Of a DNA stretch of 64,000 nt, positions 317 through 57,202 are shown piece after piece (position 1 is the first letter of the stretch; each line of letters begins with the position of its first letter). Origin of the DNA: Antedon mediterranea. Its lineage: Eukaryota > Animalia > Echinodermata. Both the position numbers and the translations under genes were made by a program. The stretch spans positions 243,812-307,811 of the forward strand of contig NC_092675.1 in the NCBI RefSeq assembly GCF_964355755.1, read 5' to 3'. Below the pieces are notes generated by a model. That model was not told where the DNA came from. It was given only the letters and a program-made list of their open reading frames with translations, and did not search any database.

Positions 317-2923
317 CTTCACTACTTTAAGTTTCCTTGTAAGATAAGATGTTTTGGAAGTTTCCTTCAAGAAAGAAACATTTAACTCTCCATATTTGTT
401 TACGTTTTCTGGCCAGTATTGTGTGCATTTATTCTACAAATAAAATTATAAAAACTGACAATTATAAACACAAAAATTGAAATGTATGTCATTTCTATAT
501 TTCAGTAAAAAAGCATTTACTGTATTTAAAATCACATTCTGAATGTGGTAACAAATATAATAGTTTTTTTTTACTTTTTAAGATAATATATAAGTAATAT
601 ATCATAAAACCTTGAAAAGAAGCCTATCTCAAAAAGAAGTGCCCTTTTTAGTTTGCATAAGAAATCTCGAAAAGAAGGCCATCTCGAAAATGTATTTGTG
701 TTTTGAGGCCTATTTAAGAGTCCTATAACCCATGGGCTTCAATTCCCGTGTTACGGTAAACAATATAATTTGTTTGTAATAATCTGCTATTTAAGCAATA
801 GAATTCATGTTCAAGTCTTAGTTGCTGCAGACTTTATTTATTAATTTATTGGTTCTCTCCTTTAAAACAACTCCATTAACAGGAACTCTCTTGAAATGAG
901 ATGTTCACAAACAATATCAATATGCAGGAGAATGCTTAATAGCTTCAATCTAATGACAAGATTTCATTGCAATTGATGCAGTGTAATTTCACTCTTTACT
1001 GATCTAGACAGAAAAAAATAAGTATGCAATAAGGTTAGAATAGTACCTTCCCATCCTCAACTAGGTTTGCTGTCATGATAACAACAGACACATTCTCCTG
1101 CCAAATCATTCTCCAGAAGTCCACAACGGTTGATTTATTTGGTCCTTGTGCCGCAATATATTCATTTTCCTTCACAAAGCCCTATCATTAAATGATTATG
1201 CAAAACACACATTTTTCCAACTAAATATCTATTAATTAATTTAATCTTAATAATGGAGAATGTATAGGCAAAACTGCCCATTTTAGGTACCACCCAAGTA
1301 TTTTTCTTCTCAAAGCTATAGCTTATTTAAAAGCTTATAAAGATATAGATTTAATACACAGCAGGCACATGAGGCCGTGGAAGAACAAACACCGGATGGA
1401 GGAATTAGATTGTTGCACTTATGCAGAAAAGGATGAGCTCAGTCTGAGGAGACCTTTCTCTTTCATGATGATGATGAATACACTCAAACACCCAAAAATG
1501 TTTCATTGAATTGACATACCTTAATAAAGCAAGCATTGATGTAATCAGAATATGGATTGTCATATATCACATCAAGGACAACACGATGCTCATCATCTAA
1601 ATAAGAAATATTTTTATTTTACATTCATAAAAATAATCTATATATAAATTTACGTAAGGACAAAATTCGGTAAATCGCGCGTTATTTCTAGAATGTTTAC
1701 TCGATGGTATATACAGTTGGTTAGAATCTCGGTACTGATTTAAACCACCCGATGTAACCCTGTTTACTAATTAAATTGAGTTAGATAATTAGCTATTGAC
1801 AATTAAAACGAATTTAGCTTGAATGATTTGCCCCTAATAGGGGTGTATTCCGACCGTAGTATACACTGTCTAATGGATGTCCTCTTAAAAAATACCTGCA
1901 CACAATAATACGAGGATGCTTCGCATTTTCCTATCTCCTCCTACGATAATTGTTTTTAATAGCTGAAAACCGGTTGAACAGCTCGAGTACAGTATCATAA
2001 TGTTGAAGACAGGCCGATTTTCTTTAAAAAAAACTATTTTGATAGATTTAATATACGTTTATACAAATGTATTGATTTGCGATGAATGGAACATTCCAAT
2101 CTATCAGACACCCAGTTTGTAGGTAAATTCATGAGCCCTCCATGGTTTAACACAAGTAGGTAAATTTATGGGCCCTTTGAGAATGAACTTAAAACTGAGA
2201 TATAGCATTGCAACACTTTGACAATATTGTAAATACTGTACGTAATAATCATTTTTGGTCGCCATTTGAATCAAAATTTTCTTACTGTAAATGTGGTTAC
2301 TGTTTATTGTATTAATTAGTAATTATAAAAAATATAAACGTCGTAGTGGTGTATCGTTAGATGTACTTTACTATTTTAATCGACTATACAGGCACAGTTT
2401 TGTTTTTTGGACTCATTTTAAGACAAGTTTCTCCTTCGGAAGTAGGCCTAATTCTCAGTGTGCTAATTTTAGCTGACTACATAAATCATCGTGTCTATTT
2501 ATTCGTTTCTGTAAACGACAATGTATTTATAGTCCTGCAGTACGTACATTTGAAATCGCCAGTTATGTTACGCTGAAATGACTGTATATTCGAGAACCAT
2601 CTAGTTATTATAATTCATGATATTTGATTATCATTGTTAAGTTATATGTTGAATTTTTCACATTTTTAGTGTAAAGGCAGTGTTTTATTTCTCAAACAAC
2701 TGACAATCATTGGAATATAACTGTCTAAATACATTTTCTATATGTTCTGCATAATTAATATATTCATCAAGAATCTCACAGGATAAAAATACAGAGGGCT
2801 AGAATTTTCCCAGAGTTGCAAAAACTTACATGGAATAACATTGCGATAACGATTCTTGATTGCATTATTTGATTCCAGACCAACAGACTTACGAGCATCG
2901 GTTTTAATACCTTCAGGAAGAGA
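317..2923 (-). CDS. N-terminal half of classical PTP catalytic domain (4 exons of gene 1)
   Basis: Exons 2923-2830 (KNRYRNVIP), 1596-1520 (DEHRVVL...DYINACFI), 1181-1047 (YIAAQGP...[14 protein letters not shown]), 433-317 (KCTQYWP) follow the standard PTP motif order. Confidence 0.95.
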
Positions 2924-5900
2924 CTAAAAACAAAACCAAATTTTAAAGTTCTGCTAAATTCTTACACAATATCCTATTTTATACCAAACATCCATGACTT
3001 TATATTAAACAGGTCAAACACAATACAAATCAAAATCTATATTGGCAAAAATCCAATAGAAACTGTGCCAGTTATGAATATTATTTTTAGCAAATGCATT
3101 TTGACTGTGACACTTACTTGACTGTGGCAGTCTATAACTTCAGTATGTAGAGTAGGGTAAATTATAATATTAAAAATTAATGTTGGTGTTTCTAAAATAA
3201 ATTCAATGTAATCTGTGCACACATCATTAACATTGGCTCTCATGTGAGCATACATTCATGCTAGTACGTTTTTTTATACAAACTGTGTGACATTTAAATT
3301 ACTTCAGTGATTATTAACTAAAATTAGATTTCTTTCAATAGTTTACCTCCCATTCTTGCGTAAGTTGTTCATTTGCCTTCTTCTCCTCAATATACTCTGC
3401 TAGTTTGTGTATTGGTATCGCAGGTTGTATGAACTCTTGGATTACATATGGATCAGGATCAGGTGTATAGTTGGAATAATCCTCTGTAACAAAAACCATA
3501 AAACACATGATGCAATAATCTATTAGAAGTTTACAAGTTTACCTTATACCATGGTACCCATTGATTTACAACATGATACCTACACTGGGACATCCACCTA
3601 CACTTATCCATTTGCTTCACCACAACATTGTTACATATTTATATGTATACAGTTTACCTTGATTGTTAGTGGCCCCTAGAGCAAGTAGCTCATTATTGGT
3701 CTGCTCAGGTTCCTTGCCAGATCTTAGCCCATTTGGTGCTGACATGGGGATAACTCCTGGTCTCTTTAAGATCTGTCTTTTTGCTCGTCTATGTACAAAA
3801 AGTTTAGTGACAATTAATCTTCCACAATTGTTGGAAACATAGTTTATACAGAGTTACAGTAAGAATTTACTTAGAAATGATGCATTGGTGTACAGATGTA
3901 ATTTCAATGTATGATAAAGTTTAAAAACAAGGAAGATTTGAATTTTTAAAACCAAAGATTTTAATTGAATATTCAACACTTCAATTCAACACTATTTTAT
4001 ATTTTTTAACATGGGTATTGTGGACATGGACATTTCTACACATACAAACATACTTATGTGGTGTTAAGAAATGTATGAGTCAAGAAAATAAATTTTTTAA
4101 AAAGCAGCGTTTCTGTATAATCTAATTAAAGAAATATGTTTTGATGGAATTTACTTACATTTTCCATGCCAGTACAACAGCAAAAACCAAGAGAAGAAGA
4201 ACAGCAATCAGAACAATTACAATTACTGTTGTATCAATACCACCACCACCATCATCATCATCTGTATTTGGAGAATTATCTGTAGCCTCTACAAAATGAA
4301 TTCTTATTTATTTCTACTTCTACTGTAATAAACTACTGTATAAGCTTACTCTGTCAAACAAATAGATATTAAAAATTGAAGGGGGATGGGAGGTACAGAG
4401 AATAATTATAATTAATAGCAATGTGATTTTTTTTAGAAAACGTGTATTTGCATTTAAGGTAATGAGATCCAAAGTTTGGGACCTATTGCTGAGAATAGTA
4501 ACAGTTTTATGATGGGGTATGTAAATATCAAATCTATTTTGTGTGTTCTGATTGTGTATTGAGTGATTACATTTGTCAGGGTAGAAGAGAATTTAAGGAA
4601 GCATAAAGCAACAATCATTGTTGAACAGAGTTAATGTTTGAGGACATTAAGTTTGGCAAAAGGCAAGATGAATGAGAGAGTGCGAGATATTATATATTAT
4701 CCTGATAAGCTTTTTAAAAATAATCTTGTTTGTTTAGGATGGAAATGTAAAGTGATACCCAAAACAATGTTGCAGTTGCTCAGATAAGGAACAATAAAGT
4801 ATAAATAGTATAATTATAAAGAAAATATGAAGACAATCTAAAAATGATACTAAAACTCTTGCAAACTTTACTTTAAATATCAAGAATGTGTTTTTTCCAG
4901 AATAAAGAATGATATAATTAGAAATAAAGTTGATTGTTCTGTTTTTTTTTATGGTTGGGATTGTTAATTTACATTATAAAATAAACACTAATTGTTACAA
5001 AACAAATCCTTTATATTTTAAGACCTAGTATTTTGGATCATGATGAAGGGCTAGTGTTTTCCAAACGCTCTACTAATTTTTCTGGCTGTTTTAATTTATC
5101 ATTTTGATTTAGCTTTTTGCTTTTTTTGTATCTCCATTGAGATCCAGCCACTGATACCCACAGCATTGTCATTTTTTCAGTAATTTGCCTTTGGATTTAT
5201 ATATATATATAAATATTTTGTATATACTGTAATAATTAAACAAAATAAAATAAAAAATGTGTTTTAGCAGCTAGATGTAATGTAAAAGATTACCTTTGAC
5301 AGTAACTGTAAATACGCAGCTGCCCACATTATTAACGGTATCCATAGCAGTACAAGTAACATTAGTTGAACCAATATTAAATGATGAACCAGAAGGTGGA
5401 GTACAAGTAGCTGACAGATCAGTATCAGCATTGTCACTGACTGTGGGGTCATCCCAGGTCACTAGTGTGCCTGTATCTTCTTCAACATATTCAACAGGAC
5501 AGCTTACAGTCGGACTATCATTATCTAAAATAAATATCAGGGCCGTAGCTACCAGTAAGGTAGTGTGTGAAGACACACTATTTATAAATCTCTTTACTAT
5601 TCCCAAATAAAAATATCACTCAAAATGCATTTTAAAAATGTTTTACCATAAATAACATCCCCTTTCAGTCAGGAGGTGCTTGCTTGTTTCCCTCTCCCAA
5701 CTGGACTGTATGAAATGTCTTTGTTTTCTAAATTTTTGTTTCTAATAAACTTACCATTGACAGTAACTTTAAACACACAGATTCCTGTATTACCAGCAGT
5801 ATCCATTGCATTACAAGTAACATCAGTTGAACCAATATTAAATAATGAACCAGAAGGTGGATTACAAGTAGCTGACAGACCAGTATCAACATTGTCAATG

Positions 5901-8900
5901 ACTATAGGATCATCCCAGGTAACAGACGGTTCACCTGTTTCAATGTCTGGGCAGGTCAAAATGGGAACACCAACATCTACAAAAAAGTGAACTCCAGTGG
6001 TTTATAAACCACTTTCATACAATACCTTGTGAAATTATAATCAATCTTTGCCTTGATATAATGTCTCTAAATTTATTAAAACTGGAAGTCTCTTGTTTGC
6101 TACTTTTGATTTTTCTTCAGTTACCCCATTCCACATATAAAACAATTGTTTTTAAATGCCCACTGTTATTTAGAGCTTTTACTGTGCAATAGTATACAAA
6201 TATTGGCTGGGATGAGGGGCATGGTTCATAGTCCGCTTTACTGTAGCTGCACGTTTAAACTGGTTGTTTTATATGTAGGCCTTGCGCACCTAGATCGATT
6301 AAATCCAGAAATGTGCAATCTAGAAAAGGTTATACCCAGACATGGGGATAGAATTTACCATTTTTTATCAACCAATCTAATGCTGTGAATATAAAAATTA
6401 ATAAAGCATATCATGTGATACTAAATTAAACCAATCAGATAGTAAGGATTTTGTTAAAACTTTGGATGCAGTGTTTAATTACTTACCATTGACTGTAACT
6501 GAAAAATCACAACTTCCTGTATTACCAGCAGTATCAGTAGCATAGCAAGTACCAACCCTTGAACCAATATTAAATGATGAACCAGAAAGTGGATTACAAG
6601 TAGCTGATAGATCAGGATCAACATTGTCACTGACTGTGGGGTCATCCCAGGTCACTGTAGCTTGGTTTGATGTTGATATACTCCTAATAATGTTTCCAGG
6701 ACATTCAACATTTGGTCTTTCTTCATCTATAACAACTGTAATATTTCAATAATATGTATTAAAATATAAAGACAATAAAAATATAATAAATAAATAAATT
6801 AAAGAAAAAGGACATAAAAATCAAGCATATTTAAGTAATATCATACAATACTCGAGTAAAATAATGAAATTACTCAAGTAAAATAATGAAATTTTACTGG
6901 ATAATTGAAGGTTCACCCAATTGTGTCATTATGATCTGTATGTACAATTTGAACTATTAGTAGTACAGTAAAAAACAGAGAAATTAGTGTTTCATTAAAC
7001 TTACTATTGACAGAGTCTGTAACTGTGAATGTGCACACTCCAATATTACCAGCAGTTAAAAAAGTCTAAAACATCATAGTTTACAAACAAAACTAACAAG
7101 TTGTACATAGTAAACATGCATACAAGGAGAAGAAGAGAAATACTGTATTTGTTTCATACTTACCATTGACAGTAACTGTAAATACACAGATTCCTGTATT
7201 ACTAGCAGTATCAGTAGCATAGCAAGTAACATCAGTTGAACCAATATTAAATGATGAACCAGAAGATGGAATACAAGCAGCGGATAGATCAGTATCAACA
7301 TTGTCACTCACTGTGGGGTCATTCCAGGTCACTGTAACTTGACTAAAGGTTGATATGCTTCTAGCAATGTTGTCAGGACATTCAACAATGGGTTTTTCTG
7401 CATCTAGAAAAATATCAAAATGTATTTCAAATTATAAAATATGAGTATGCAAAATTAATTAATATTATAATACCTAGTGCTTAATATAAGTTGATTGAAT
7501 GACATTGGGGCAAGATCCATGAAAGATATATTTTAAAGTATTTGTGCCATCTGAAGTTATTCTGTAAAACTACTGTAAAGCACTATTTAATATTTTTGTT
7601 TCAAAATGTGATAATAAAGATTATACTGAATTAACCTCTTCATATCTTCATTAACATTCATTACTGTTTGGAATGACTGCCAACACAGTAAATTAAATAG
7701 ACAACATGATGTTAGAATTTATAATTTGACATTGGCAAGTGCAGTATTTCTTATATATAATTGTAAAAGTACACCGTAACATGCAGTAACAAACATAATT
7801 AGGATAAATTGTACTTGTACAATTAAAATTATTTCAAACTATTTAATGACATACCTAAAATAACATCAAAACTACAGGATCTAGTATTACCATGGCTATC
7901 AGTTGCAGTACATGTTACCATAGTAGAGCCTGGAGGAAATGATGAATCAGATGGTGGAGTACAAATGGCAACAAGGCCAGTGTCAACATCATCAGTTACT
8001 ATTGGTGCATCCCAATCTAAAGTTAGCGGTGATGATGTTTTTAATATTTTATCAGCAGGACAGGTTACAACTGGTACTTTACTTATATGAACTAATAATG
8101 AAAAAAAGCCAAAATAATTATAATAAAAGGCATTGAAAACCATTTATATTATAGAATTTAAATGCTACTGTAAGCATACTCATCAATAATTACTAACTTA
8201 TAGTAATCTAATTCGATCTTTCGCAAATTATGAGCTGTGGCCCAAAATCGAGCCATGAATAATCTTTGGACACAGGACGGCTTGAGAAATTGAAAAACAA
8301 ACAACAAATTATTGTAGTAAGTGCCTTTATTTTACAGCAATACACAGCTTACAAGGGAGCAGTGTCAAGATGATGAATGGTCATATTTATTTGTATATTC
8401 ATCTTCAAATTGAGAAAATTCAGATTAGGTCTTCTACAGACACAATTTTGGTCAATGTGGCCAACACTAACATTTTTGGAAGCTTTAACAGCATAATTTT
8501 TGTGTATATATACATTGCAAAACGTTAATTAAATTAATGAATCAACTGACACTCACATGATGATATGGAAAACAAAATTACATGCATTCCTCGTGTAAAA
8601 TCCATTTTATAATGAATACTGTAAAATCCTAATAACACATCAGTGTTTTTTTAGGACTCTTTGATTGAGTTTTTTTTCCGATATTTTGGGAATCTAAAGA
8701 ACTCGCTTAAAGTCAACATGAAGGTGGTACTGTATGTTAATCCTAACAATGAATCAATGTAAATGTTAATTACCTCCATAAACATCAACTTCACAAACAG
8801 TGATCTCATTATTATTACTTTTGTATAAAGAAACATAACGTCCAATCAAAGATGGATTGCAGTCTACCAAGTGATGACCAGATGTTTGGGAAGGGATAGA

Positions 8901-11900
8901 TCCACAGATGTTAGTGGAAGTCAAGAGTAAACTAGTATCAATATCAACACGGATCTCAATGCCAGTAAGTGTTCCTGGAATTTAAAAAAAGAAAAAACAT
9001 TATCTAAAAAATCCCTTGCAGGTAATTCAAAATGTTAGCTTAATACTTTGATATGGGTGTATGAAAGGATGCTCTACATCCCACTATCTGATTGACATGC
9101 TCAACCTTCTTTATAAAGGAACTGACAAGCCGCGCAAAACAGGACGCTTGGTTATAACAGATTTCGCTAAAGCATTTGATGTTGTTGACCATACAGTTGC
9201 AGCAAGTGATAGTGCCAAATCCTTGATTGTTGATTGGATATGTAACTTTTTCTCTGGAAGGCGCCAAAGAGTCAAGTACCAATCGACTTTGTCAGACTGG
9301 AAAACCTTATCCCGTGGTGTGCCACAAGGTACTAAGCTTGGAGAAATTGTGTTCCGTGCCGCCATCAACGATGCTGTGAAAGAAGCAATCTGTAAAAAGT
9401 GGAAGTTCGTTGATGATCTTTCACTGGGCGAGGTAGTTAACTCTAATGCAACGTCTACACTACAACATGATGTTGATGATTTGGTCGAATGGGCAACCAT
9501 GAACAAATTTCAATTGAACCCATCAAAATGCAAACAACTTAAATTTTGTTTCATGAAGTCGCCACCCTATATGACACCTATCAACATAAATGGCCGTGAA
9601 TTAGAAACAGTTAACTATGCAAAAATACTCGGTGTTTACATCCAGGATGATTTAAAATGTTATGTCCAGGTTGACCATATCCTTAGTAATGGAGGAAGAC
9701 GTCTACACATGCTTAGCCTTTTAAAACAGTTTGGGATTCCTTTTGAAGACCTTGTCCAAGTTTACACCACATATGTTAGACCAATTTTCGAGTATGCAAT
9801 ACCAGTATGGCACTCTAGTCTTACTGTTGCGCAGACAAATGCCATAGAGTCCATGCAAAAACGTGCATGTAAGATAATGTTGGGTAAAGATTACTAAGAC
9901 TACAACACTTCCCTTAAAATTTTGAAAATCAAACGACTAGATGAACGCCGCGAAAATATATGTCGTAAATTTGCTTCAGATTGTATTACGTCTAATAAAT
10001 TTAAAATGGACCTGAAATGGATTTTCGATTTTTTTCATTTTAGAATGATGTTTTGGGGGCTATTAGGTGTTGCTAGAATGTATATTGTTACAAAATATAA
10101 ATTGGCCCTTTTGGGGAAAGCCCCATTTGAAAATCAAAAAAATTCGCGGGTGACGTCACTTTGCGAATATATTCCTATCCCTCCAATGGACAATTTGCAG
10201 TTTTTTGGCTATAACTCTTGAAATCTATGGAGTATTTTCTAAAAAATGCTTGTGCATTTGCAGAAACGTATTTAGAATTTTTTTAGATAAAATTATTACC
10301 GTATAAACGGTTATTCATCGAGTAAATGACGATTTAAAATCTTAAAATCAACGGGTTTTTTCTGGCAATACCGAAGTTGGCCTGGCAACGTTGTCCGGGA
10401 TACAGCTCCGTGCGCAATGATGCGTATCCATATTTTCCGTTCGTCGTGTATTTTGTATCGTTCGTAATTTATACTGCTAAAATGTGATAGTTTCTTTAGT
10501 TTTTAGTTTAGCGGAATTAAATTAGTAATATGAGATGATAATTTATTTGTCACGAATCAGGCAGTTCGAAAACGAATTTTATTCATATTTTACTTTGGCT
10601 TGACAATGAGCGCAGCAAGTTGTTGATATCGCTTTGGTCCTTGGATGCACATGAAACGGAGCCTCGCCGCATGATGTGGGTGGTGGATCGACTCCGCGCA
10701 CTGGATTGGGGGCCTAGCTAGGCCTAGCTAGTAAAGGTTTGGGAGGTAGGCCTTCTAAATTCGGGTTTTAGAACAAACGAAGTACATTTTAGGGACCTAT
10801 ATTTCAACAACATTAGATATTGAATAAATTAGTATTAGTGTCAACGCTTCGCGTATCTTTCCAGGCCGTCGATCATTCACTGACTATCGGGCGGCATACA
10901 CGCTCTCGATATCATCGTGTGTATATGTGACGTCGTGAATATAGAGGCTTCCGACGGCCGTTGAAATAGAATATTGCAATGGCATGAGTAATTTTCGCTA
11001 ATTTACCATGGTATCTTAAAATTTCGTTTTTACTCAAAATACTATATATTTTGTTTTTATTTGTATGGGTTTGTGTTAATTTGATACATTTAAATAACAT
11101 GTGTGAATTTCTTGAAAATCGAAATTCCATTTCAGGTCCATTTTAAGGATTGGTTTATTAGAAACCTTGAGCTTTCTGTTAGACTTAGGAAAAGAAAAGA
11201 ATTTGTTGAGCCCCTATGTAAAACAAACTGATACTATAATAGCCCTATGCTTTATCTTACATGCCTCCTTAATGAGAGACAGACTTTAATTCAGTAAAAC
11301 TAAAGAAATTTTGTGAAGATGTATTTAATAAATTTAACATAATATCTGAATATGTACAAATAAATATAATATTACTGTAAATCACTTTTAATAGGGAGTT
11401 TCCGCAACCTCACGAATACGATAACGAAAACGGATACGTCACACATTTGTGAAACTTTTGAGCTGATCCCCATTTCCTATTCGTAAAGCGTATTCGTGTT
11501 GACGAATATCACCAGTCATATTCGTAACTACAAAACGAGTATAGTTTTTGATCTATTTTGCACATTTTGCATTTGAATCAGGAATGATTCATGATTATAA
11601 TATAATTATACTTTTATTGAAAGTAATTTTTACTAAAGTAATTTACTAAAATGCCAGGTCAATTTTGATAAATAGCAGTTTTTAAAGTCCTCGCTCGCTT
11701 TGATGTTACGCTAGGCCTAGGCAGCCAAGCACCAAGCAACACGTACCTGCGCTTTGCTCAAATTTACCGCAGTCATATTTTGACGGCGCCCTCAATATTT
11801 CGTTGCCATGCGAAACAGATTTTTACTGGCTTACGAAAAAGGAATACGTGTGCGTGACGTATCCGTTTTCGTTATTGTATTCGTAAGATTGCGAAACCTC

Positions 11901-14900
11901 CCTATTAACTCCATAATTTCCACATTTTCTAATTATATCAAATTTCATAATCTTGTAAATAAATTATCAATTTCCTTATTTCCCTTACTTATTTAATTGA
12001 ATTTTTAAATTTGTAGATAAATTTTAGCTAAATTTGCAATATGATTCCACTTTTATTGTTCTTTGATTTGTACGTGTACTTTTTATACTGTTTTATGCCT
12101 GTTTGAAATGTTTTTATATTTGTAAGTATCATGTAATTCAGCCATTTGCGATTTTGATGCAATAAAATGAAATGAAAATATGAAACACTTACTCAAAACT
12201 AATTATTGTGAATTTTAATGGATGGTGAATTGAGATTTCAAAATTAATATTCACATTAAAACTTCAGAGAGAATGGTATTTTTAAGAATTCCTATAATGA
12301 ATCAGAATGACATGAACGGCAAAGGAAAACCTGTTTTTACAGTATTTAGTATTTCCAATATTTTACAATGAAATATGTCGCTTTTTGTCACCAAAGTTTG
12401 ACAACATATGAATGTACATACTGGAACATACATTGGAAATTTCAGAAATCTCAGGTAAAGGTCATATGTATGCTGTATTACAATATGGAACTTGAGCCTT
12501 GTGGATAAGTGGTTGCTGTTGGCATGTTGGAAGTCTGTCAACAGGGTATTGTTTTTGTTTTTAGATAATTGTGCTTAAAGACCTGAAGAACACAGCCTTG
12601 CAACATTAAAACAACAGGGTCATACCATCACAGGATATCTAGATGATATGTTAATAATTGCAAAGACAGAAACAAAGCTTAATCAATCCTTAGAGACAGT
12701 AATCGCTTTATTGTCAAAATTGGGTTTTATTACTATTTGGAAAAAATCAATAACACATCCATGCCACAGAATACAACATTTAGGCTTTATTATTGATTCA
12801 ATAAAGCATGAAGGTTACATTAGTCAAAGAAAAAGAAGACAACATAAACGTTTATGTTTAGATACTCTTAACAAAAAAAGAGGATACCATTAGAGGGGTA
12901 GCAAAAGTCATCGGAAGTGTTGTGGCAAGCTTTCCAGCAGTAAATATGGGGCCTTTGCATTAAAAAGACATTTTTGTAATTACCGAAAGTTGGTTGAAAG
13001 GTGATGCAAGTGACAACCACTTTATTGCGGACGTGAGTAACACCCTCCCAAATTTCGTGGTGTCACATGAGCCACGCCCTACAGGTGGACGCGGAGGTGG
13101 AATATGCATCATTTCGCACCGTGGACTCCAAATAACACCAAATGTTTCAACAAGTTTCCGGTCTTTCGAACATATGGATATCAAGATCACTTCCAATTCA
13201 TCTGTAATTAACTTGATTTCAATTTACAGACCACCACCATCGACCAAAAACAAACTTACCTTTGACTTGTTCATCACTGAATTCTCATCACTTCTTGAAT
13301 CAGTCTCTTGCACCAAAAACCTTCTGATAGTTGGTGATTTCAATATTCACACAGATGACCTCTTGGACAACAACACCAAGCGATTTGATGAACTGCTTTA
13401 CACGAGTTGTCTTCATCAACACGTCCAAGGCCCCACTCACGTTAGCGGGCACACACTGGACCTTCTAATCTCTCGAAAAAACGACAACATAATAAAACAA
13501 ACCACTGTCAAACAAGGACTACCATCCGACCATATGGCTGTCATCAGCTTTGTGGATTTATCACATCCTAAACAACCAACGCGGACAACCTCTTACCGCA
13601 AACTTCGTAACATTGATCTAAATTGTTTTGTGGAAGATATAATGAATTCCCCGCTCGTCTGCGCACCGGAAGATAATGTCTCCGATCTCGCTGACCAATA
13701 CAATAATGTATTGCAGTACATCCTTGACCAACATGCTCCGTTAACAACTAAACTGGTCACCATTAGACCACGGGCACCATGGTACACGAATGAACTCCGT
13801 GAAGCGAAGTGCGTCAAACGGAGATCAGAACGCAGAATGTTGAAATCTGGTTTGGATATCGACAAACAGAGGTACAAGTTGGAATGCAAAGCATATAAAG
13901 ATATGCTAGATCTAGCAAAATGCAATTATCATCGCAATGAAATCGCTAATGCGGATGACAAGAACCTTTTCCGCATCATAAGTAAACTGTACTCGGTCGA
14001 TTCTTCTCCTGTTCTGCCAAAACACACATCTTCAATGGATCTCGCAAACCAGTTTGGCTGTTTCTTTAATGAAAAGATTCTGAAAATTTGCAAGAAACTT
14101 AACTCCATAAACACTCCACTAATAACTGTCAACGTCGACGAGTCATGTAATAGTAGTTTCGCTGAATTTGAGCAAATATCAGAAGATACGGTACGCAAAG
14201 TCATCGCTGAAAGCGCATCTAAGTCCAGTAGACTTGACCCAATTCCAACACGGTTACTAAAAAACTGCATTGACGCTCTACTACCGCATATCACTAAAAT
14301 CGTCAACATGTCGCTGTCATCAGGTACTGTACCATCTGCATTTAAATTGTCCCTCGTTATGCCACTGTTGAAAAAGCAAAATCTCGACTCCAACGTCCTA
14401 CAAAATTATAGACCAATAGCAAATCTTCCCTTCCTTTTCAAAGTCTTGGAAAGAATTGCAACTGCTCAGATAAAAGCATATATGGATGAACATTTCCTGT
14501 TTTCAAAAGTCCAATCAGCCTACCGCCGCTTCCACTCAACTGAAACCGCTTTATTACGTGTTACAAACGATCTACTACTTGCTTTAGACAAAGGTAATGA
14601 AGCGGTACTTATTCTACTCGACTACTCCGCAGCATTTGACACTATCAATCATGATTTATTATTTCAACGTCTTCATAAAAGATACGGCATAAGCGGAACC
14701 GCATTGAAATGGTTTATTTCATATTTTGAGAATCGTAGACAAGCAATCATTGTGGGTGATTCGATGTCTGATGAGTTCGCTCTACCCTGGGGTGTACCAC
14801 AGGGATCCGTAAAAGGTCCACTCGATTTCATCTTATACACTGGACCACTCAGCAACATCATTGATTCCCACCCGGAAGTTCGTCATATGATCTATGCAGA

Positions 14901-17900
14901 TGACACTCAACTATATTTAATCATGAAACCTACACATCACTCTGAATCTGTTAACAGCCTTGAATCATGCATTGCAGATGTTCGCTCATGGGCCATTCAA
15001 AATAAACTCATGCTCAACGACTCCAAGACTGAAATGATCCATTTTCATTCAAAGTTCCGTGAGGCATCATCATTTCCTTTGGTCCATATCGGAGATACTA
15101 GTGTCTCTACCTCCAGCTCAGCCAGAAATCTAGGCGTCCAACTAGACAACAGCCTCGGTTTAAAAGAACACATTCGTAATGTTTGCCGTGGTGCTTCCTT
15201 TGGAATTTACCAGATCGGCCAGATTCGTAAGTACCTTGACAAAACATCAACTGAACGTCTTGTTCATGCTTTTGTTTCATCTCGTCTGGACTGTAATAAC
15301 TCGCTTCTGTACGGCCTACCAACTTCTTATCTGTCTCCTCTTCAACGAATCCAAAATTCCGCCGCAAGACTTATCACTGGCACTAAACGACATGAACATA
15401 TTTCTCCCGTTTTACGTGACTTACACTGGTTGCCTGTTGATCAGCGCATTCGTTTTAAAATCCTGTTGCTGACATATAAGGCCATCAACGGATGTGCTCC
15501 AGCCTACATATGTGACATCATTACTCCGTCAACCAACTCTTCGCTTCGTTCATCCAGCAGACTTCTTCTAAAACCTGGACCCCGTTCCAGAACTCGGTTT
15601 TACGGTGATCGTGCTTTCGCTGTCGCAGCCCCAAAACTCTGGAACACTCTACCACTCGAAATACGCTCATCAAAATCTGTTATCACATTTAAAACTAAAC
15701 TCAAAACTCATCTCTTCAGAGAAGCATAATCGCACGCTACTACTTGCACTGATCTTGGAAAACACAGCGCTTTGAAACCTTTGTCTCTTGCGCTTTATAA
15801 ATGTTATTTATTATTATTATTATTAAAAGAAACAAGGGCAATTTTGATGCTATGATGTGTATCACAAACAATTTGAGGAAGGAATTAAGCTGGTGGACAA
15901 CAGAAATTAATACCCAATGGAAAAATATAATTGAGTTCCCCTAAATATTATAATCTCATTGGACAACTCAAATGAAGGCTGGGGTGGTGCATTAGGAAGT
16001 GAGAAAGTTGGGGGGAGATGGCTTGAGGTAGAAAAGGCATGGCATATAGCCATCTGGAATTACAAGGAGCTTTCCTAGTTTTAAAGAGAGGATTAAAGAT
16101 AAAAGAGTTGGAATTTGGCTAGATAACACTACTAACGTTGGAGTATTGTTTTGGAATTTTATAAACATAATCTCTTGATTGTCTTTCAACTCTAAGCATA
16201 AGTATAAGCATTATATAGGTTCCAAACGTCAGTGACAGTCATCTGTATGCAAAGGCAATTTTGTTTTTAAGAGTCATGGTACCTTGATAAGAAGCCTTAT
16301 AAATAATAGTGTACTATTACCTTCATATCCAGTTGCTGGGTATACATTAACATAGTCAATGCTGTATGTATCTCCTAAATCAACATACCAATAAGCATTT
16401 TCACCTGCAGAATATAAACAACAACATTTTAATTTATATTGTTGTTGAAAAATCCCAAAAAACTAGTAATATTTATTCAATAAAAAGTAAATGAAATAGA
16501 GTATGGTAATAATTACTTAATTAGTACATATACATTTAGGATACTAAAAAACTACTAAAGAAAAATGTTGTTGGATTGTATATATTTTCTAAATTGTTAA
16601 TTTAAGTTTAGGGCGACAAATATTGGTAGGCAAATTTAAATTTGTGAAAAAAAGAATAAATTATATTAAATTGATATAATAATCTTACCAACAGTACGTG
16701 AACATGAACCACTGGTAAAGTCCATATCAGTGTTATCATCAACAGCTAAACCAGCATTATATACACCACCCGATGTATCTGTACTCTGGTAAGCCATCTT
16801 GCCAGTTGATAAAACAGCTGAAGAGAAAACAAAAATTACAATATTAACCACCTTCACCACCACAAACTGGGTTTTGAGTCCAAAAAGTGAAAATTGTGAT
16901 CTAGATTCAATCCAAATTAAATGGAATATAAGTAACATAAATTTCCCAATCTCTCTCTCTTGCACTCCCACTATCTTATATTAATCAACATTTACCAACA
17001 TTTAGATGTGCCTAAATCATATGTAAGATGTTTGTATATAGATTTTTCTAGTGCTTTTAATACCGTTGAACCTGGTTCATTAGTACGCAAACTTAAAGAA
17101 ATGAACGTAAACGACACATTGACTTCATGGATATATAATTTCTTAACAAAAAGGTTCCAGTATGTTAAACTAAACGGTATTTTATCTGATAAAAGAACTG
17201 TTAGCATTGGCACGCCACAAGGGTCTGTTATCTCCCCAATGTTGTTTTCACTGTTCACCAGCAGTTTCAGAGCCAATTCAAATGAATGTTGTATAGTAAA
17301 ATATGCAGATGACACAGTCATCACTGGATACATTACTGGCAATGATGAAACAAGCTATAGACAACTAGGATTTGATTTTTATCACTGGTGCTGCAATAAC
17401 AACCTGAAACTAAACATAAAGAAAACAAAAGAAATGCAAATTGATTTTAGGAAAATTAAAGAACCCTTAGAACCTCTGATTATAAATGAAAATGAGATTG
17501 AAGTAGTAAATGAGTACAAATATCTGGGTTGTATAATTGACAATAAGCTAAATTGGATAAATAATGTAAATAAAGCCACATGCAAAGCCAACCAAAGGAT
17601 GTTTATTTTAAGAAAAATGAAGTACCTACAAATTGACAAAACTATACTTAAATTGTTTTATAACTCTGTAATTCTCAGTGTAATACTTTTTTGTAATGTT
17701 TGTTTTTATGGTAATACAATGCAAAAAGATAAAATTAAACTTAATCGAATAGGAAATAGAGCAATTAGACTAGTAGGAGAGCACTTACCTGATGTTGAAT
17801 CCTTGTATAAAGAAAATGTGTTAAAAAAAGTAAAAAGTATCATTGATGATGAAACACATCCTCTTCACAAACAATTTGCTCTCATGAATTCTGGCATAAG

Positions 17901-44035: not shown

Positions 44036-44074
44036 AAATCATTAACATCTTCTGACTGCGTAGAACTTACATTG

Positions 44075-46229: not shown

Positions 46230-49200
46230 TTACCGTTTCAAATCAATATATGTTGGTTCCAGTGATGAGTATGTGTGCAGATCTTTAAATGTCTCTCTAG
46301 AATCTGGCAGAGGTGGTGGCGCTACAGCATTTTCACTATCAGCAGTTGGCAAACTGATCTCATATACTGTATTAGATGGTTTTATTGGCATTGCAACATT
46401 ATCATAATCAGTCATGTTCGTCTCTGAGGAAACACCCACTTCCTTGTTCTTCTGAGAGTAGTGGGACCTAAGATAAATGAATTAATCTTCAACAAACAAC
46501 ATTTTTATTATTTGAAAAAAAGGAAAAAAAATGAATAAATGTGCATTCACTATTATACTGTGGTAAACTATCGTCACTTTTGAACACAATTAGTTATCGG
46601 GTCAGACTAGGAACCCACAACCTTCAGATCCTCTCTAGACAGCAGAGCTTGAGCTGATGGTTAGGGTTGGAATCGAGCAGCAGGTACAGCACAGGGTGAT
46701 AATCATATGCTGTGGAGTATGTCAGAGTAGGGCAAGAGATTTGACCAAATACATACCTCACTGCACAGTAGCCTTAAAATGGTAACAACATTGATTTAAA
46801 TAATCTATGAATTATTAAGGTAAAATTAATATACCATATTTAAATAAACCTTAAATAAGTTATTTAAATGTAATATTAAGAAATATAATCTTTATATAAA
46901 TTTATATGAAAAAGAGGTTATCTCAACAGATTTGAAACAGATTGGAGAAATTGTATGATTCGTTTTAATATATAGAAAAATATACACAGTAAAAACAAAA
47001 ATATAGGTTATTAGGCAACTGATGATTAAATGTACCGGTGTTAGTACTGCAATTTACACATGTTAAAACAAACAAGGTATAAATAATTTGTTTTAATTTA
47101 AATTTAATCGTTATAAGTGATCAAAGACAATTATTCAAGCTAAGTTTTCAAATCCCCAGATTAAATTGCAAGCAGAATGAATACAGTATTTAAAAGCGAT
47201 TATTATATGCTAAACTTGTTGAATTACAACAGAAGTCTGTAATATATCAAAAACTACTGTTAGGCTGAGACGTCACCTAAAGAGAAGCAATAATAGCCCA
47301 AATAAAAATAATTGTTTAAGTACAAAACCTGCAATAAAAAACCAAAGTTGGAGACATCATCAAAATAATGATGGCCTGAACAATTATTATTGCTATCAGG
47401 TAAACTGGTACTGTGTTACAGGATGTGTCACATTTACCTTCAAAAGTAAATACAACATTTAAACTGTTCAAAAGCATGTTATAGAAAACACTTTTTATAA
47501 GTGATACATGAATATGTAATGCTGTAGGATAGTAGAGAAAACACAACATTGCTATATGTCATTAGTGCATGGTTATAGACCAGTATTTTCAATCAGCATC
47601 AAAAGTAACTTTTGGAAGGTAAACAAATATACTTAATATTCATCACAAATTTGTTGAAATTTTTGAAAATAGTCTTCCTTGATATTGATAATAAAATACA
47701 TTTAAATTCTTTTATAACACACCTGGTTGTATTCTTGTAATTTGATTTGTTAATTACCCATCACGTGTCATTTGGAATTAGCCCTACTTAACGGAAAAGT
47801 GATATCTATGTTATAAACATTTTGAGATTTGTTTCCACAAGACATTGTTGACTGATCCTGTTCGAAAATCAACTTGTCATTGGATCATTGCAGCAGCAAC
47901 AGCATTGCGTTTTTGGCTGTTGATCAAGCTCCCTCCCAAAGCTTGATCGAGCTCCCTCTCAAAGTTGATCAAGCTCGATCTTCTCAAAACTTGAAATGAT
48001 CTCCCTCTCAAAGCTTGAATGAGCTACCTCCCGAAACTTGATCAAGCTCCCTCTCAAAGCTTGATCAAGCTCCATCTCAAAGCTTGATCAAGCTCCCTCT
48101 CAAAGCTTGAACGAGCTCTCTTACTTACAAATTTTAACCATCAGCTCAGGAAAAAATTGATTATAAAAACTATGAAGTGCTTTCAAGGTTTATTATACTG
48201 TTATAGAATGAATACGTAAATTACGTATATTCATTACGGTAATGAATTATGTACTTAAGTTAATGAATTATGTACTTAAGTTAATGAATTATGTACTTAA
48301 GTTAATGAATTATGTACTTAAGTTAATGAATTATCTACTTAAGTTAATGAATTATGTACTTAAGTAAATGAACTATGTACTTAAGTTAATGAATTATATA
48401 CTTAAGTTAATGAATTATGTACTTAAGTTAAATTGTACTTTAAATTTAAGCAAATTTAATTACCTGCAATGAAATTCCTTTAGGTAAGGCATAGTAAACA
48501 TTTATAAAGCAAAGCTTATTAAATTGTGCTTGGGCAACAGATTTGTTTTTTAAATGGATAAGACAAGTGAAGACCTATTGCTGGCAGAGAAGATTGATTG
48601 GGTTTTAGAACATAACATTGTTGGTTTATATGCTGTTTTCTTTGTGAATTTCTGATTTTTTATTGAGCAGTTAAGTTTTTTTAAAGTTGGACAAATGCTG
48701 AATTTAATTGTTTTACCTCCAAATGAAACTGTAAATTCACAGCTTCCCATATTTCCAGCAATATCTGTAGATGTGCAAGTTACATCAGTTGAATCGGCAT
48801 CAAATAATGAACCAGAAGGTGGAGTACAAGTAGCTGACAGACCAGTATCAACATTGTCACTCACTGAGGGGTCATCCCAGGTCACTTTGAACTGATGTAC
48901 AACACTGTCAGGACATGTTACAACTGGAGTTATACTATCTGGCATTTTGTCATCTGAAATTATATTATGTAAGATGTGTTTTAAATAACTTCTCTGGCAT
49001 TTATTAAAATTAAGAGATTATTTCAAAATCATAGAAAAACAAAATGCATTGAGAAAGGACAACATTTGCCTTATCTGATTTATCTAAGTATAGTGTTAAT
49101 ATGTAATGAGGAGACCCTACTACCTAAAACACAGAACTGAAATGATTGGCAGACAAAAGATTGTAACAGAAACTAAGATACATATACACATTAATGGTAG

Positions 49201-52200
49201 TACAGAAGTAACACTTACCATTGACAGTTACTTCAAATAAACAGATTCCTACATTACCAGCCATATCCACAGCAAAACATGTAACATTAGTTGAACCAAT
49301 ATTAAATGATGAACCAGAAGGTGGAGAACAAGTAGCTGATAGACCAGTATCAACATTGTCACTGACTGTGGGGTCATTCCAGGTCACTGTAGTTTGGCCC
49401 AAGGAGGTATGTTCTTTAATATTACCAGGACATGTTACAATTGGATTCTCACGTTCTATGAAAAGATTTTATTACTGCATATTAGATTATATTTTGGTTA
49501 ATCAATAATTTAAATAATAAAATGACTTAGATATATCCTTTTGTGTCAGTTGCAAAGAGATCACCACATTTCTAAAAGTAGTTGCATGTGGGTGGAAAAA
49601 AGTGGACATCTCTTGACAACAAGAAAAATCGTACATTTATTCCCAACAAACATTAAACTGAGCTATTGTTTAAAAATGTATAATTTCCATTTTGTAGAAG
49701 TAGATTTACCAGTTTCACATCTGGTTCCAGTATAGAGGCTTGGACATGTACATGAGTAAGATATACCAAAATCATTACAAGCTCCACCATTATGACATGG
49801 AGAACTGGCACATGCACCAATTCCTGAAAAAAGAGTTGATTTTTAAAGATATCATAACACAACTAAACAAACTCATTAAATTTCAATACATGAAACTACA
49901 CAATTGTTACAAATAAAAAATAAATCATATAGTATCCTTGTATTTATTTTGTAGACTTACTAGTTTCACATCTGGTTCCAGTATAGAGGCTTGGACATGT
50001 ACATGTGTAAGATGTACCAAAATCATTACAAGTACCACCATTGACACATGGAGAACTGGCACACGGATTGTTTGCTAAAAAAAAGCAGGTTGAATTGAAG
50101 AGCCAAGTTAAATAGAAAAGTAAATCTTTCATTGATTGAATAAAAAGTACAAAAGAATACAATCAGGTGTGTAATAACAATTAATTAGATATTAAAACAT
50201 AGCGATTTTTTCCTTTGTGTATGTAAAATGTTTCAGTATACTTTAATGTAACCTCAGTTATATTCAATCAGAAATACTGTATCATTATCATTAATGTATA
50301 GGGATCCATGTACAGTAGCATAATTGTTGCAGAGTACAAGATCATTTGAAACACATTACTGTATAAAAGAGGAAAAACATACCTTCTGTTACTAAAACTG
50401 TAAAAGTGCAATCACCATAATTAGTGGCACTGCATGTTACAGTATAAGAGCCAACAGTAAATGATGAACCAGAAGATGGAGAGCAAGTGGCAACCACGGC
50501 AGGGTCAACATCAAGTATTGTTGGTGTATCCCATGTCACAACTTTAGTTGTTGAAGTCATAATATCACTAGGGCATGTCAAATCTGGTACAGGCACTTTA
50601 AGTAAGAAAAAGACTAACTGTTTAGTTTGCCAATTGTCACAAAAAGCATTGGCTTAAAATGGCTGGCTTATGCTGGACCGACTCTCAAATTCGGGTACAT
50701 TACCGTAAGTAATCTGCATATTTCACATACAGTACACATTCAGTGGTATGCAAATTTTAATTTGATTTAGTTAATAATTTACATTTTTTCTTGTTCACAT
50801 AGATTAACAATAACAATCATGTGAGAATTACTGAGTGATAAAAGCTCTGTTTAAAAGTGTTTAAAAATCAACATGAAATGATGGTGGTACCTTATCAAAT
50901 GTTAATTACCTCCATAAACATATACTTCACAAACAATGATCTCATTAATATTACTGTTGTATAAAGAAACATATTGCCCAATCTTGGATGAATTGCAGTC
51001 TACAAAGTAATAACCTTCGGTTGTTGAGGAAGGAATAGATCCACAGATGTTAGTTGAAGTAAGGAGTGAACTGGTATCACTAGCAACACGGATCTCAAGG
51101 CCAGTAAGTGTACCTGAAATAAAAATGCCACAGAATTAATTTTATAATAGAAAATCTCTCTGAGAAACTGCAGTCAGAAGTAGAATAGATTTTCAAGTTT
51201 AAATTGATTGATTTACATATGAAAGACTAATCTAAATAATTTGAGCTCAAAACTTGAGGTAGATCGTTGGGGGAGTCCTAAAAATCCATAATGCAAGGTT
51301 AATTTTTTAAAGATTTTAAAAGTTGCTATCTTTGTAACTTGTGGCAAAAATTTTTAAAATGTTTACAGTTCAAGCTGAACGTGCATTAGAACCATTCATT
51401 ATCACCATTAGATATCACTTTTCCATGAGATAGAGCGAATTCCAACAGATGTGTAAGTTAACCAATCAAATTGCAAGGATACAATCAGATGTGTTTTATA
51501 TTCGTGGACAGAATATCTCATTTGTTGTTGAAAACGGTTCTAAATACAGGGTAGTCTAAAGAGATTTTAATACAAAATATACATTCCTTCTTTCTAGAAA
51601 TTATGCTAATTTAGATAAACAGGACAGCCTAGCTATTTTAGTCTGCCATGTATATCTAGGTATTGTGCATACACATTTTTGGAACTTTTAAGCCTAATAG
51701 AATACTAGATTTGAATTCATCACTTTATCCTCACGACAAACGCCACGTGCACGTACGTTAGAAAATGCGCAAAGAAAAAGATTACATCATTATGACATAT
51801 GGTATATGTATGCATTTTATTTGAAGCCTCATGGTACCACCATGATGCAACGTAAGTAATTAAAATAAATAATATTACGAACCTAAAGATGCTGGGTATA
51901 CATAAACATCATCAATGCTGTATGTATCTCCTAAATCAACATACCAAAAAGCAGCCCCTGTAGAAACTTTAAATATAAACAGAAATATATTATTCTTCAA
52001 TCTTCTTTGAAAAAAATACTAGTAATATGTTTTTATATTTTATTTATTCATACTTAACAAGTAAATCCAAATAGAATGATAATATTATTACTTTTTAAAA
52101 ATAAACATTTATACTACTATACTAGTATAAGAAAAATATTGGTCTGTGTTTTTCCCTTTTTCTATAATTTTTGGTTAATGTCAAGATACAGTATAGTAGG

Positions 52201-54326
52201 TAAGTTTATATATTAAAAAAATAATAAATAAGTAATAAGTTATTTTTTTAAAAAGCCTGGAATAACAATCTCACCAACAGTACGTGAACATGAACTACTG
52301 TCACCATCAACAGCTAAACCAGCATGATATGATATACCGTCAGAGGAATAAGTTGTACTCTGGTATGCAGGCTTGCTAGTTGCCAACTCCGCTGTAAAGA
52401 AAACAATCATTAGTTGAGTTTATTTTTTCCCTATTTCACAAACAAGTGTAATAAGAGCAATTAGAGAGTTGTGACATCCAGCCACCAGGGGTAATCGCTG
52501 AAACGTATTCTAATTTCATCGAAAATAAATTTTGACAATTTTGACCATTTTATGCGCGCGTACGCAAACGTTATACATGTGCTATGCACATAATTGTATT
52601 GCCATGATGAAATATGACCTGAAATTTATGAGTACCACATTTTGTTTAATTGCGATTTATGCTTGTGAATATATGATTACAAACGTGATTTCGTTAAATC
52701 GAGCATAGACTGGTATTTTTTTATTGCGCACAATGAAAACATAACCCCATTGATTCCTGCCATAAGGAATATACTCTGAACAATTGACTTAGCTAGTTGA
52801 AACTGATATCAAGATAATTGACTAGGACAAAATACTGCTAAAGAAAGAATAAATAAAGATCCTGACAGAATCAATAGGTTATGTGCATGATAATGCATAT
52901 AACCTAATTAGATAGAGTCTAAGTTTACATATATTTTCCAGCCTCTCTTTTGCACTCCCACTATCCTTTAATCTGCCTCAAACTCAGACAGATACAAGGT
53001 ACAGTATGAATAGATATGAGTAGGGTAGAATTAATTAGTCAAATTGATTATTTTTTTATTCAAATTGTGCAAATCGGTCTAAACAAATAGATTGTAAAGA
53101 ATTTTTTCATGCTGTCAGTGGAATGTAATAATTGATTGGTAAATTAAAAATTGCTCATGCACATTTTCAAAACCTCATGTATAATATATAACACCGATTG
53201 ATTTGACTGGTTCGTTGGAGTATTGTGGTATGTATTTCAGATTGAAATCAAGTAACTTTATTGGTTTGATTAGGTTCAATTCTTGGACAATTTCTTTTTC
53301 TTTTTAATTCATTATTGTCTTTTAGTTGTCTTTACCCACCATTTGATATGTTATTTTAGGTTATAGAGAGTCTGCCGGAACTGTACCAATTACATTCATT
53401 TCTTTTCCCGATTGTTTTGTGTAGAACTACTGTATAACAATAAAATAAATGTTATTATCTATGTTAATTTAATGATATTCTCATATATGAAATACAGCAA
53501 CAATGTTTTGGATAATCGATTAATAATACTGCAGTAACTTTGATTGTAAATTGTTTGTTAGAAATGTGTAATGAATCTGAGGTATGAGAATAAATGAAAA
53601 TACTATATAATATGAGTTTAAATTACTGCATAGATCTATATGTATAATCAGATATAAATAATTGTTAATTTTCATTACATTCAAGCAAACCTCTGTCTGT
53701 GTGATGTACAAAATGATATCATTACAATGTTATTGTCATGTTGGATTATATTTTTAAGAGCTACTTCATCTGCTTCCTTTTTGTATGCGTTTTTGATCAA
53801 AGTTCAATAAAACGTTATAATGTATGGACTCAAAAAATAAATACTGATAATTTGCATCTTTATCGAGCCAAGTTGTGTATAGTAAGTAACTGTATACACA
53901 AACTTTTTGCCGAAAACAGGAATTGGTAAATCTATTACGAACTGGCTGCCTCCTCTACGCCTAACTAGTCTTAAATGCTGGGCAGTTGAGTTCCGGTGCC
54001 GGAATCCTAACCACGGCGATATTCATATTAAGAGAATAATATTCTAGTAAGATCTTTGTCTTCACCAGGTCCTACTTTACGCCATGGCATACCACTGCAG
54101 AGGGATCCATAGGCTGAGAGAGTAGTCTAGGCCGGGGCCCAGAGAAGAAGCCTACAGAACAGTTACACACAGTAGTACAGCATTAGTTGGGCCTAGCTAG
54201 CTTGGCTAATTACTTAGCCTATATTTGTCTACGGATTTTACACGGATACTTACTGTTTTGAGATGAACTGATGAAGCAATGCTTAAGTAGAAGTAACAAA
54301 AATAGTGTGAACCTTTTATCAAACAT
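46230..54326 (-). CDS. Gene 3: ~576-aa type I membrane receptor (signal, F-type-lectin-like, HYR, EGF, EGF, HYR, HYR, TM, tyrosine-motif tail)
   Basis: In-frame exons 54326-54254, 52391-52275, 51957(or 51966)-51883, 51113-50910, 50595-50383, 50074-49961, 49823-49710, 49455-49219, 48953-48717, 47437-47329, 46467-46230. EGF: [33 protein letters not shown]; tail has TDYDNV, TYSSL, TYIDL. The TM exon donor (gttttg) is weak. Confidence 0.85.
47920..48120. repeat. ~23-bp minisatellite with palindromic core
   Basis: About 8-9 diverged units of aagcttgatcaagctccctctca. Confidence 0.85.
48240..48430. repeat. 21-bp minisatellite, about 9 copies
   Basis: ttaatgaattatgtacttaag units, nearly identical. 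Confidence 0.95.
52450..52910 (+). mobile_element. Probable non-autonomous Helentron/Helitron-like repeat
   Basis: 3' hairpin taggttatgtgcat-gata-atgcatataaccta; segment absent from the paralogous gene 1 intron (~16830-16940). Confidence 0.45.
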
Positions 54327-56976: not shown

Positions 56977-57202
56977 TTAAATCACTACTGGTCCCACCGA
57001 CGAATATGTGTGCAGATCTTGATATCCAGAATTAAGCCTTTCTCTAGATTCTGGCTGAGGTGGTGGTGCTGTAACATTGCCAGGTGTTGGCAGGTTTATC
57101 TCATATTCTGTAGCAGCTGGTTTCATTGCAATAGCATCATACGTAGGCATGTTCATCGCTGTGCTATCATCCTTTCTCTTGTTCTTCTGAGAATAGTGGG
57201 AC
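56977..57202 (-). CDS. Gene 4: terminal cytoplasmic-tail exon of a paralog of gene 2 (upstream exons presumably beyond the right edge)
   Basis: Acceptor ttatcttag at 57203; translates [41 protein letters not shown]...SGYQDLHTYSSVGPVVI*, highly similar to the gene 2 tail at 33445-33226. Confidence 0.75.

Follow-up and report, generated by a model that had tools for sequence, protein, structure and literature searches.

The 64-kb window analysed here (the whole stretch of DNA considered) comes from the crinoid Antedon mediterranea and contains a tandem cluster of lectin-fold receptor genes, for which the original prediction had proposed related ectodomains joined to either a tyrosine phosphatase or tyrosine-motif tails. 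The window was read in six frames and compared with itself, and exon ends were set at canonical splice sites. As a result, four genes were modelled from 34 exons, all on the minus strand at the coordinates given below, with the repeated exons interspersed with retroelements. The introns are GT-AG in 30/30 cases, none of the 34 exons has an internal stop, all ectodomain introns are in phase 1, and the length of every internal ectodomain exon is divisible by 3. Genes 1–3 share a signal exon, with nucleotide identities of 96% between genes 1 and 3 and 78% for both 1/2 and 2/3, and a three-exon head at 70-88%; the four co-oriented paralogs and their common front were thus recovered as proposed. 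A Pfam search on 31 single exons identified HYR in 8/8 stalk exons and EGF in 2/2. The stalks comprise five HYR domains in gene 1, three HYR and two EGF in gene 3, five HYR in gene 4 and none in gene 2, and the HYR stalks are 44-79% identical between genes. Exon anatomy, fold, phosphatase motifs and splicing from the transmembrane (TM) exon to the tail together bear out the predicted wiring of related ectodomains to an intact receptor protein tyrosine phosphatase (PTP) or to tyrosine tails.

The 5′ part of gene 1 (317..19527, 16 exons; RefSeq XP_071953150.1, here P0001) encodes a signal peptide, a head of F-type lectin fold, five HYR domains, a TM segment, a juxtamembrane region and the first half of the first PTP domain (D1). 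The signal exon (19455..19527) is missing from the RefSeq model and is followed by the head exons F1 (16689..16817), F2 (16321..16404) and F3 (8774..8974), and by five HYR exons within 5294..8091 (8091-7855, 7403-7164, 6726-6487, 5976-5755 and 5524-5294; Pfam E 1e-11 to 1e-16). The TM exon (4159..4288), for which exon comparison detected no homology to the TM exons of genes 2-3, precedes two juxtamembrane exons within 3347..3788 (3788-3658 and 3483-3347) and the D1 exons within 317..2923 (2923-2830, 1596-1520, 1181-1047 and 433-317). The exons of P0001 match the window letter for letter, and the RefSeq start of the third HYR exon lies 9 nucleotides earlier than ours. The in-window phosphatase corresponds to Pfam Y_phosphatase positions 14-123 of 234, in three exons; the remainder of D1 and the second domain (D2) lie left of the window and are known from P0001.

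The catalytic motifs of D1 are intact in P0001 (KNRY at 680, WPD at 813, HCSAGAGRTG at 846 and the Q loop at 891), and D2 follows. Since the RefSeq protein continues through WPD, HCSAGAGRTG and the Q loop, the proviso that gene 1 might lack a downstream HCxxGxxR motif falls away. Indeed, gene 1 ends in a classical PTP, with half of D1 inside the window, and has the layout of a classical receptor PTP (RPTP), with a signal peptide (in our own model), an ectodomain, a single TM segment and tandem D1-D2 (in RefSeq). Among PDB entries, its PTP scores best against RPTP alpha (486 bits) and RPTP epsilon (485 bits), versus 394 for the next family, an assignment made from phmmer scores against mostly human structures. 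Two YxN motifs were found at the C-terminal end of P0001, at positions 1207 and 1217.

The other three genes have homologous TM and tail exons. Gene 2 (33226..39893; six exons, 280 amino acids) consists of signal (39893-39809), F1 (37304-37173), F2 (36789-36697), F3 (35872-35669), TM (34417-34309) and tail (33226..33445) exons, and is stalkless. Gene 3 (46230..54326; 11 exons, 576 amino acids) consists of signal (54326-54254), F1 (52391-52275), F2 (51957-51883), F3 (51113-50910), HYR (50595-50383), two EGF (50074-49961 and 49823-49710), two further HYR (49455-49219 and 48953-48717), TM (47437-47329) and tail (46230..46467) exons, and carries deletions in F1 and F2. Only the tail exon of gene 4 (56977..57202) is inside the window; its head, five HYR domains and TM segment lie to the right, in RefSeq XP_071953876.1 (P0005), and its TM-tail intron exceeds 6.8 kb, versus 0.86 kb in genes 2 and 3. 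Residues 1-182 of P0005 hold three EGF domains and a TM segment ahead of the head; this piece probably belongs to another receptor gene next door that the annotation has merged with gene 4.

Genes 1, 2 and 4 match A. mediterranea RefSeq proteins, and the third head exon as a query led to three protein clusters of this species. For gene 3, no database protein was found by word-index head searches (3 and 2 matches, all Antedon) or among the best 150 of the 1727 matches of a representative search. Both RefSeq isoforms of gene 2 (XP_071953904.1 and XP_071953905.1) are TM-less, one running into the intron after F3 and the other splicing F3 directly to the tail exon in a shifted frame; gene 4 has one tailed isoform and two TM-less ones, in which the tail exon is likewise translated in another frame. 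Weak splice sites flank the TM exons of genes 2 and 3. Skipping of the TM exon gives secreted forms of the tailed genes, and gene 2 is annotated in this form alone.

The head was identified as an F-type lectin domain by phmmer (FBP32, E=6e-20; eel agglutinin, E=4e-11). Although single-sequence fold prediction was unsuccessful (pLDDT 36.8), an AlphaFold2 model of the gene 2 head reached pLDDT 89.8, and its top Foldseek matches were 3cqo (E 6e-11) and 1k12 (E 7e-11), with a target-normalised TM-score of 0.79. These matches agree with the lectin-like head of the original prediction. Published motifs of F-type lectins are the fucose motif HX24RXDX4[RK] and the cation motif h2DGx (PMC5712786). The fucose motif was found in 0/4 heads, and on alignment with eel agglutinin, His52 is replaced by Arg, and Arg79, Asp81 and Arg86 are also replaced. 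Since the fucose motif is lacking, we do not class the head as a fucose lectin. The cation motif is present in genes 2, 3 and 4, with Asp for Gly in gene 1, and four cysteines are kept in 4/4 heads. The heads are 52-76% identical to one another; 6/47 columns are invariant in the binding-face loops versus 48/98 elsewhere; the loop limits were set by hand, and relative to the bottom loops (8/26 invariant columns) the difference is modest. These comparisons suggest that the head ligands have diversified and probably do not include fucose in its canonical binding mode.

The tails of genes 2, 3 and 4 comprise 72, 78 and 74 amino acids after the TM segment, each with 5-7 tyrosines and with 4, 3 and 3 YxxL/I/V/M motifs, respectively, which agrees with the tails of about 75 residues rich in YxxL/V/M that had been expected. 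These counts exceed those of shuffled sequences (p 0.006, 0.04 and 0.03), although the three values are dependent because the genes are paralogs. By the rule Yxx[I/L]x6-9Yxx[L/I], as used for Hydractinia Alr (10.1101/2022.03.04.482883), the gene 2 tail contains one immunoreceptor tyrosine-based activation motif (ITAM; p 0.007), whose 9-residue spacer fails the stricter x6-8 rule and which overlaps a motif of the inhibitory type (ITIM). Gene 3 has Phe at the first ITAM tyrosine, and gene 4 has lost the second by a 4-nucleotide deletion while keeping an ITIM-type motif. Among the five homologous TM-tail cassettes compared (genes 2, 3 and 4, P0047 and P0154; 32-85% identity), the full ITAM occurs in 1/5, gene 2 alone, and the first Y[DE]x[VI] motif is retained in 5/5. 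Four of five tail indels preserve the frame, and a frameshift lies at the end of the gene 4 tail. The TM segments of genes 2-4 contain no charged residue for an activating adaptor. A search with the tail alignment gave no match at E<=0.01 among 1033 candidates (cluster representatives), a weak negative because the tailed isoform of gene 4 exists yet does not represent its cluster. On our preferred reading, the tails are likely phosphorylated upon ligand binding.

Splicing was then assessed with the contigs of run X1, from another individual; no run is on record as RNA, and X1 was treated as such because its contigs show exon joints. The comparison covered the part of the window with the tailed genes. 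Among the 15 joints listed, with 54 more beyond these, nine link coding exons and six fall within repetitive or non-coding sequence. At 33443/34307, 2 contigs with 225 letters on the short side lack precisely the predicted 863-nucleotide TM-tail intron of gene 2. At 46465/48715, the missing 2249 nucleotides run precisely from the last HYR exon of gene 3 to its tail and thus indicate TM skipping, although this joint is weak, with 26 letters on one side. Joints were also found for signal-F1, F1-F2, F2-F3 and HYR-TM, and the F1-F2 joints carry three different in-frame loop sequences, none identical to genes 1-4. DNA contigs continue into the introns that X1 contigs skip. RNA of family members is therefore spliced from TM to tail, with the intron where it was predicted. 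Compared with the gene 2 tail, the longest TM-tail contig has 14/225 letters changed, and it derives from neither gene 3 nor gene 4, so X1 proves splicing for the family and not expression of these exact genes. The RNA thus supports the models at the predicted introns but cannot be assigned gene by gene; the concern that the tailed genes might be spliced differently applies to gene 2, annotated as secreted only, while other RNA of the family runs from TM to tail.

Relatives of the four genes were found among the matches listed by the representative search. XP_071961244.1, on another chromosome, has the order CUB-EGF-head-6 HYR-TM-tail, and XP_071953859/60, on the same chromosome, has EGF-head-6 HYR with one tailed and one TM-less isoform seen (the latter 1 of 2 seen for P0080/P0154); an Anneissia japonica head (P0090) is also among them at 43% identity. 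In the abalone Haliotis asinina, XP_067653475.1 (P0110) has F-type lectin heads, a TM segment and a short tail with an ITAM pattern, and by its predicted protein the tailed lectin design is not confined to crinoids. A PTP domain was found in 0/157 proteins from this search and its clusters, a list that favours multi-lectin proteins and says little on other lectin RPTPs.

We next consider the origin of gene 1. A tree of 12 head sequences places gene 1 beside genes 3 and 4 (support 95/93), nested within the tailed heads, yet neither its TM segment nor its cytoplasmic part resembles the TM-tail cassette. Furthermore, genes 1 and 3 have about 570 nucleotides upstream of the ATG in common at 69% identity (score 270; best of 50 shuffles 43), located within 19528..20198 for gene 1 and within 54327-55355 for gene 3, with no sharing by the upstream DNA of gene 2. 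Because the head nests among tailed heads, the TM segment and cytoplasm are unrelated and the upstream DNA is common with gene 3, gene 1 is probably a chimera of a duplicated family front half and a receptor PTP, with the tailed form ancestral. This direction is suggested and not shown, since a single clade of tailed heads survives an approximately unbiased (AU) test. The pattern is mosaic, as heads group genes 1, 3 and 4 and tails group genes 2 and 4 (85% versus 59-60%). The reverse origin, in which the tailed genes would derive from gene 1 by truncation, was rejected, as the tails show no likeness to the gene 1 cytoplasm and at least 62/300 shuffles score equally well in 9/9 comparisons.

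From these data, we tentatively propose, with a confidence just short of even, a fast-changing tandem family of crinoid receptors whose tyrosine tails are likely phosphorylated and whose chimeric RPTP-alpha/epsilon-type member, gene 1, likely damps this phosphorylation. Ligand clustering would lead a Src-family kinase to phosphorylate the tails; a Syk/Shark-type kinase would then bind the ITAM of gene 2, and partners with a single SH2 domain would bind the lone motifs that remain in genes 3 and 4. Gene 1, which has upstream DNA in common with gene 3 and matches gene 4 in stalk length, may occur in the same cells and at the same contacts, where it would make the signalling threshold higher. The stalkless gene 2 may signal in close contacts that keep out the tall phosphatase, by analogy with size-based segregation (PMC11399299), and the TM-less forms, with a stop in the last exon, may serve as soluble binders or decoys. 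The link of similar snail clusters to parasite resistance (PMC13712769, PMC12297450) was counted in favour of this proposal.

Several points weigh against it. The gene 1 head is just 57-73% identical to the tailed heads, and their binding-face loops differ most, so a ligand common to gene 1 and the tailed genes is doubtful; expression of both in the same cells is likewise presumed from sequence. RefSeq has no TM isoform for gene 2, gene 3 has no protein found, and the X1 contigs, about 94% like gene 2, may be other paralogs or alleles. The motifs themselves are not exceptional throughout: YxxL/I/V/M per tyrosine already reaches 0.29-0.41 in other parts of these proteins, and ITIM-type matches are not above chance (p 0.10 and 0.14). 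The ratio of nonsynonymous to synonymous substitution (dN/dS) is 0.72-0.81 in heads and 0.41-0.91 in tails, with most tail and TM pairs at 0.7-0.9, and did not distinguish the tail's own reading frame from the other two. The tailed heads as one clade gave p-AU 0.0515. RPTP alpha, moreover, is an activator of Src (PMC7959691); such an action would invert the effect of gene 1.

A bolder extension, which we regard as improbable, is that paired receptors arose in animals again and again when a receptor PTP was fused to the promoter and ectodomain of a lectin receptor with a tyrosine tail, the crinoid case being a recent graft with a complete on/off/decoy kit in one locus and no recruited SHP phosphatase. 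Through a point change and a 4-nucleotide deletion, the tails would then have diverged into one form with an ITAM (gene 2) and two with a single motif, with stalk length sorting partners by size and TM skipping supplying soluble decoys.

The absence of any functional pair, which we consider unlikely but worth serious attention, would make the tailed genes uptake, adhesion or mainly secreted binders with endocytic YxxL/I/V motifs, and gene 1 an independent PTP with an ectodomain captured from a neighbour by exon shuffling. YxxPhi is also an AP-2 sorting signal, TM-less isoforms are annotated for gene 2 (2/2), gene 4 (2/3) and P0080/P0154 (1/2 seen), and the weak TM splice sites of genes 2 and 3 and the full ITAM in just 1/5 tails point the same way, as does the phase 1 of all ectodomain introns, because of which shuffling is eased. 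This explanation has to be set against the several tyrosine motifs per tail, one of them kept in 5/5 tails at 32-85% identity, the TM-tail splicing visible in RNA, and the upstream DNA common to genes 1 and 3. Also improbable is co-operation, in which gene 1, like RPTP alpha or CD45, would strip the inhibitory phosphate off a Src-family kinase and so enable it to phosphorylate the tails. In the case of RPTP alpha, Src is dephosphorylated at Y527, and a C-terminal tyrosine serves to recruit Grb2 and Src (PMC7959691); gene 1 has RPTP alpha/epsilon as its best structural-database relatives and the two YxN motifs at 1207 and 1217, but the subfamily assignment comes from phmmer scores against mostly human structures. 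Finally, birth-and-death debris, with most tailed copies as decaying duplicates, is very unlikely: dN/dS near 1 in several pairs, the gene 4 tail-end frameshift, the gene 3 deletions in F1 and F2 and its lack of a found database protein, and the many retroelements within and between genes are offset by 34 stop-free exons, internal ectodomain exon lengths that are all multiples of 3, frame preservation in 4/5 tail indels, four cysteines in 4/4 heads, spliced RNA from several members and a related head in A. japonica.

We compared the proposed receptor family with known systems. The original prediction had regarded the architecture as possibly undescribed, which did not hold, as the layout is already in print for the LG5R 'scavenger class F-like' receptors of Biomphalaria glabrata, which carry a galactose-binding/fucolectin head and have either a short cytosolic region (subgroup 1B) or a pair of PTP domains (subgroup 1C) (PMC13712769), and the SudRes1 GBD-MEGF RPTPs of B. 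sudanica share it (PMC12297450). Like 1B/1C, the crinoid locus is one cluster of single-pass fucolectin-head receptors with or without tandem PTP. The snail stalk is, however, EGF/Tie2-like (MEGF), whereas the crinoid stalk is HYR with at most two EGF domains (gene 3), and the snail clusters hold several PTP genes, whereas one was found here. Genetic links to infection are known for the snail loci and not for the crinoid locus, and the available text of PMC13712769 does not use the words ITAM or ITIM. Because of its HYR stalk, triad-less head and apparently separate origin, we regard the crinoid locus as the same design but not the same family.

Vertebrate paired receptors (KIR, LILR, Siglec-5/14) are tandem paralogs with related ectodomains, different signalling ends, a mosaic history and soluble isoforms, and the crinoid genes resemble them in all of these features. 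They differ in the built-in phosphatase, the lack of a charged TM residue and an unrelated fold, and their head identity of 52-76% is below that of vertebrate pairs. Because a common ligand, co-expression and the sign of the signals are putative, we do not class the crinoid genes as paired receptors. Botryllus FcoR (PMC12065747) and Hydractinia Alr (10.1101/2022.03.04.482883) are likewise multigene invertebrate receptors with variable ITAM, ITIM or single-tyrosine tails and alternative splicing, but they have Ig-superfamily ectodomains and a genetic tie to allorecognition, with no PTP-domain member noted in the available portions of these sources. The heads share with F-type lectins (eel AAA 1k12 and bass FBP32 3cqo; PMC5712786) the fold, both structural disulfides and, in 3/4, the cation motif, but the His52/Arg79/Arg86 triad and the vicinal cysteines are absent in 4/4; triad-less F-type lectin domains are already known from oyster and fly (PMC5712786). 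Gene 1 resembles RPTP alpha/epsilon (R4) in its tandem D1-D2, intact D1, C-terminal YxN and top phmmer matches, but its ectodomain is a large lectin-HYR one, whereas that of RPTP alpha/epsilon is short and glycosylated. Byrum et al. reportedly described in 2006 the sea urchin PTPRLec, a group of echinoderm receptor PTPs that carry lectin ectodomains and for which a role in immune defence was suggested; PTPRLec is not known to have tailed paralogs.

The window also holds abundant mobile elements. In the gene 1 introns lie a long interspersed nuclear element (LINE; 12964-15726, +) with a 921-amino-acid open frame for endonuclease and reverse transcriptase (RT), and three RT fragments (9052-9894, 12579-12890 and 16936-17988). 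A broken LINE with RT (20800-22937, +) occupies the upstream region that genes 1 and 3 share patchily. Between genes 1 and 2, a long terminal repeat (LTR) retroelement (26340-31051, +) encodes RT, RNase H and an integrase zinc finger in a 1104-amino-acid frame continuing in another frame, and is suggested to be a young insertion because its two 94-bp terminal repeats are identical. Between genes 2 and 3, a LINE (41164-44962, −) with a PHD-finger ORF1 (first open reading frame), endonuclease and RT is mostly covered by one 2753-letter X1 contig. Two short tandem arrays (47920-48431), one partly palindromic, lie in the HYR-TM intron of gene 3, and a GIY-YIG (Penelope-like) remnant (59252-60746, −) and a LINE (61744-63716, −) lie in the TM-tail intron of gene 4. 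In two runs from one sample, the depth of the DNA contigs at 35550-37890 and 45784-48269 (genes 2 and 3) is roughly half that over the gene 2 tail intron, which hints that the second haplotypes are missing or strongly diverged. Contig depths also hint at extra tail and HYR copies and haplotype-specific stretches; these are not copy numbers and were not used as evidence.

No description of this crinoid family, nor a PTP-versus-ITAM reading of such clusters, was found in our searches of open-access literature. New here are the triad-less heads, the TM-skipped secreted forms, the TM-tail RNA, the lone full ITAM in gene 2 and the probable chimera of gene 1. If the pairing is functional, the locus would represent an inhibitory design with a fused, not recruited, phosphatase, which is absent from the vertebrate paired-receptor canon and would have been reached separately in snails and crinoids. 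It would then also provide a small, tractable locus for testing the signalling of the Biomphalaria parasite-resistance receptor clusters.

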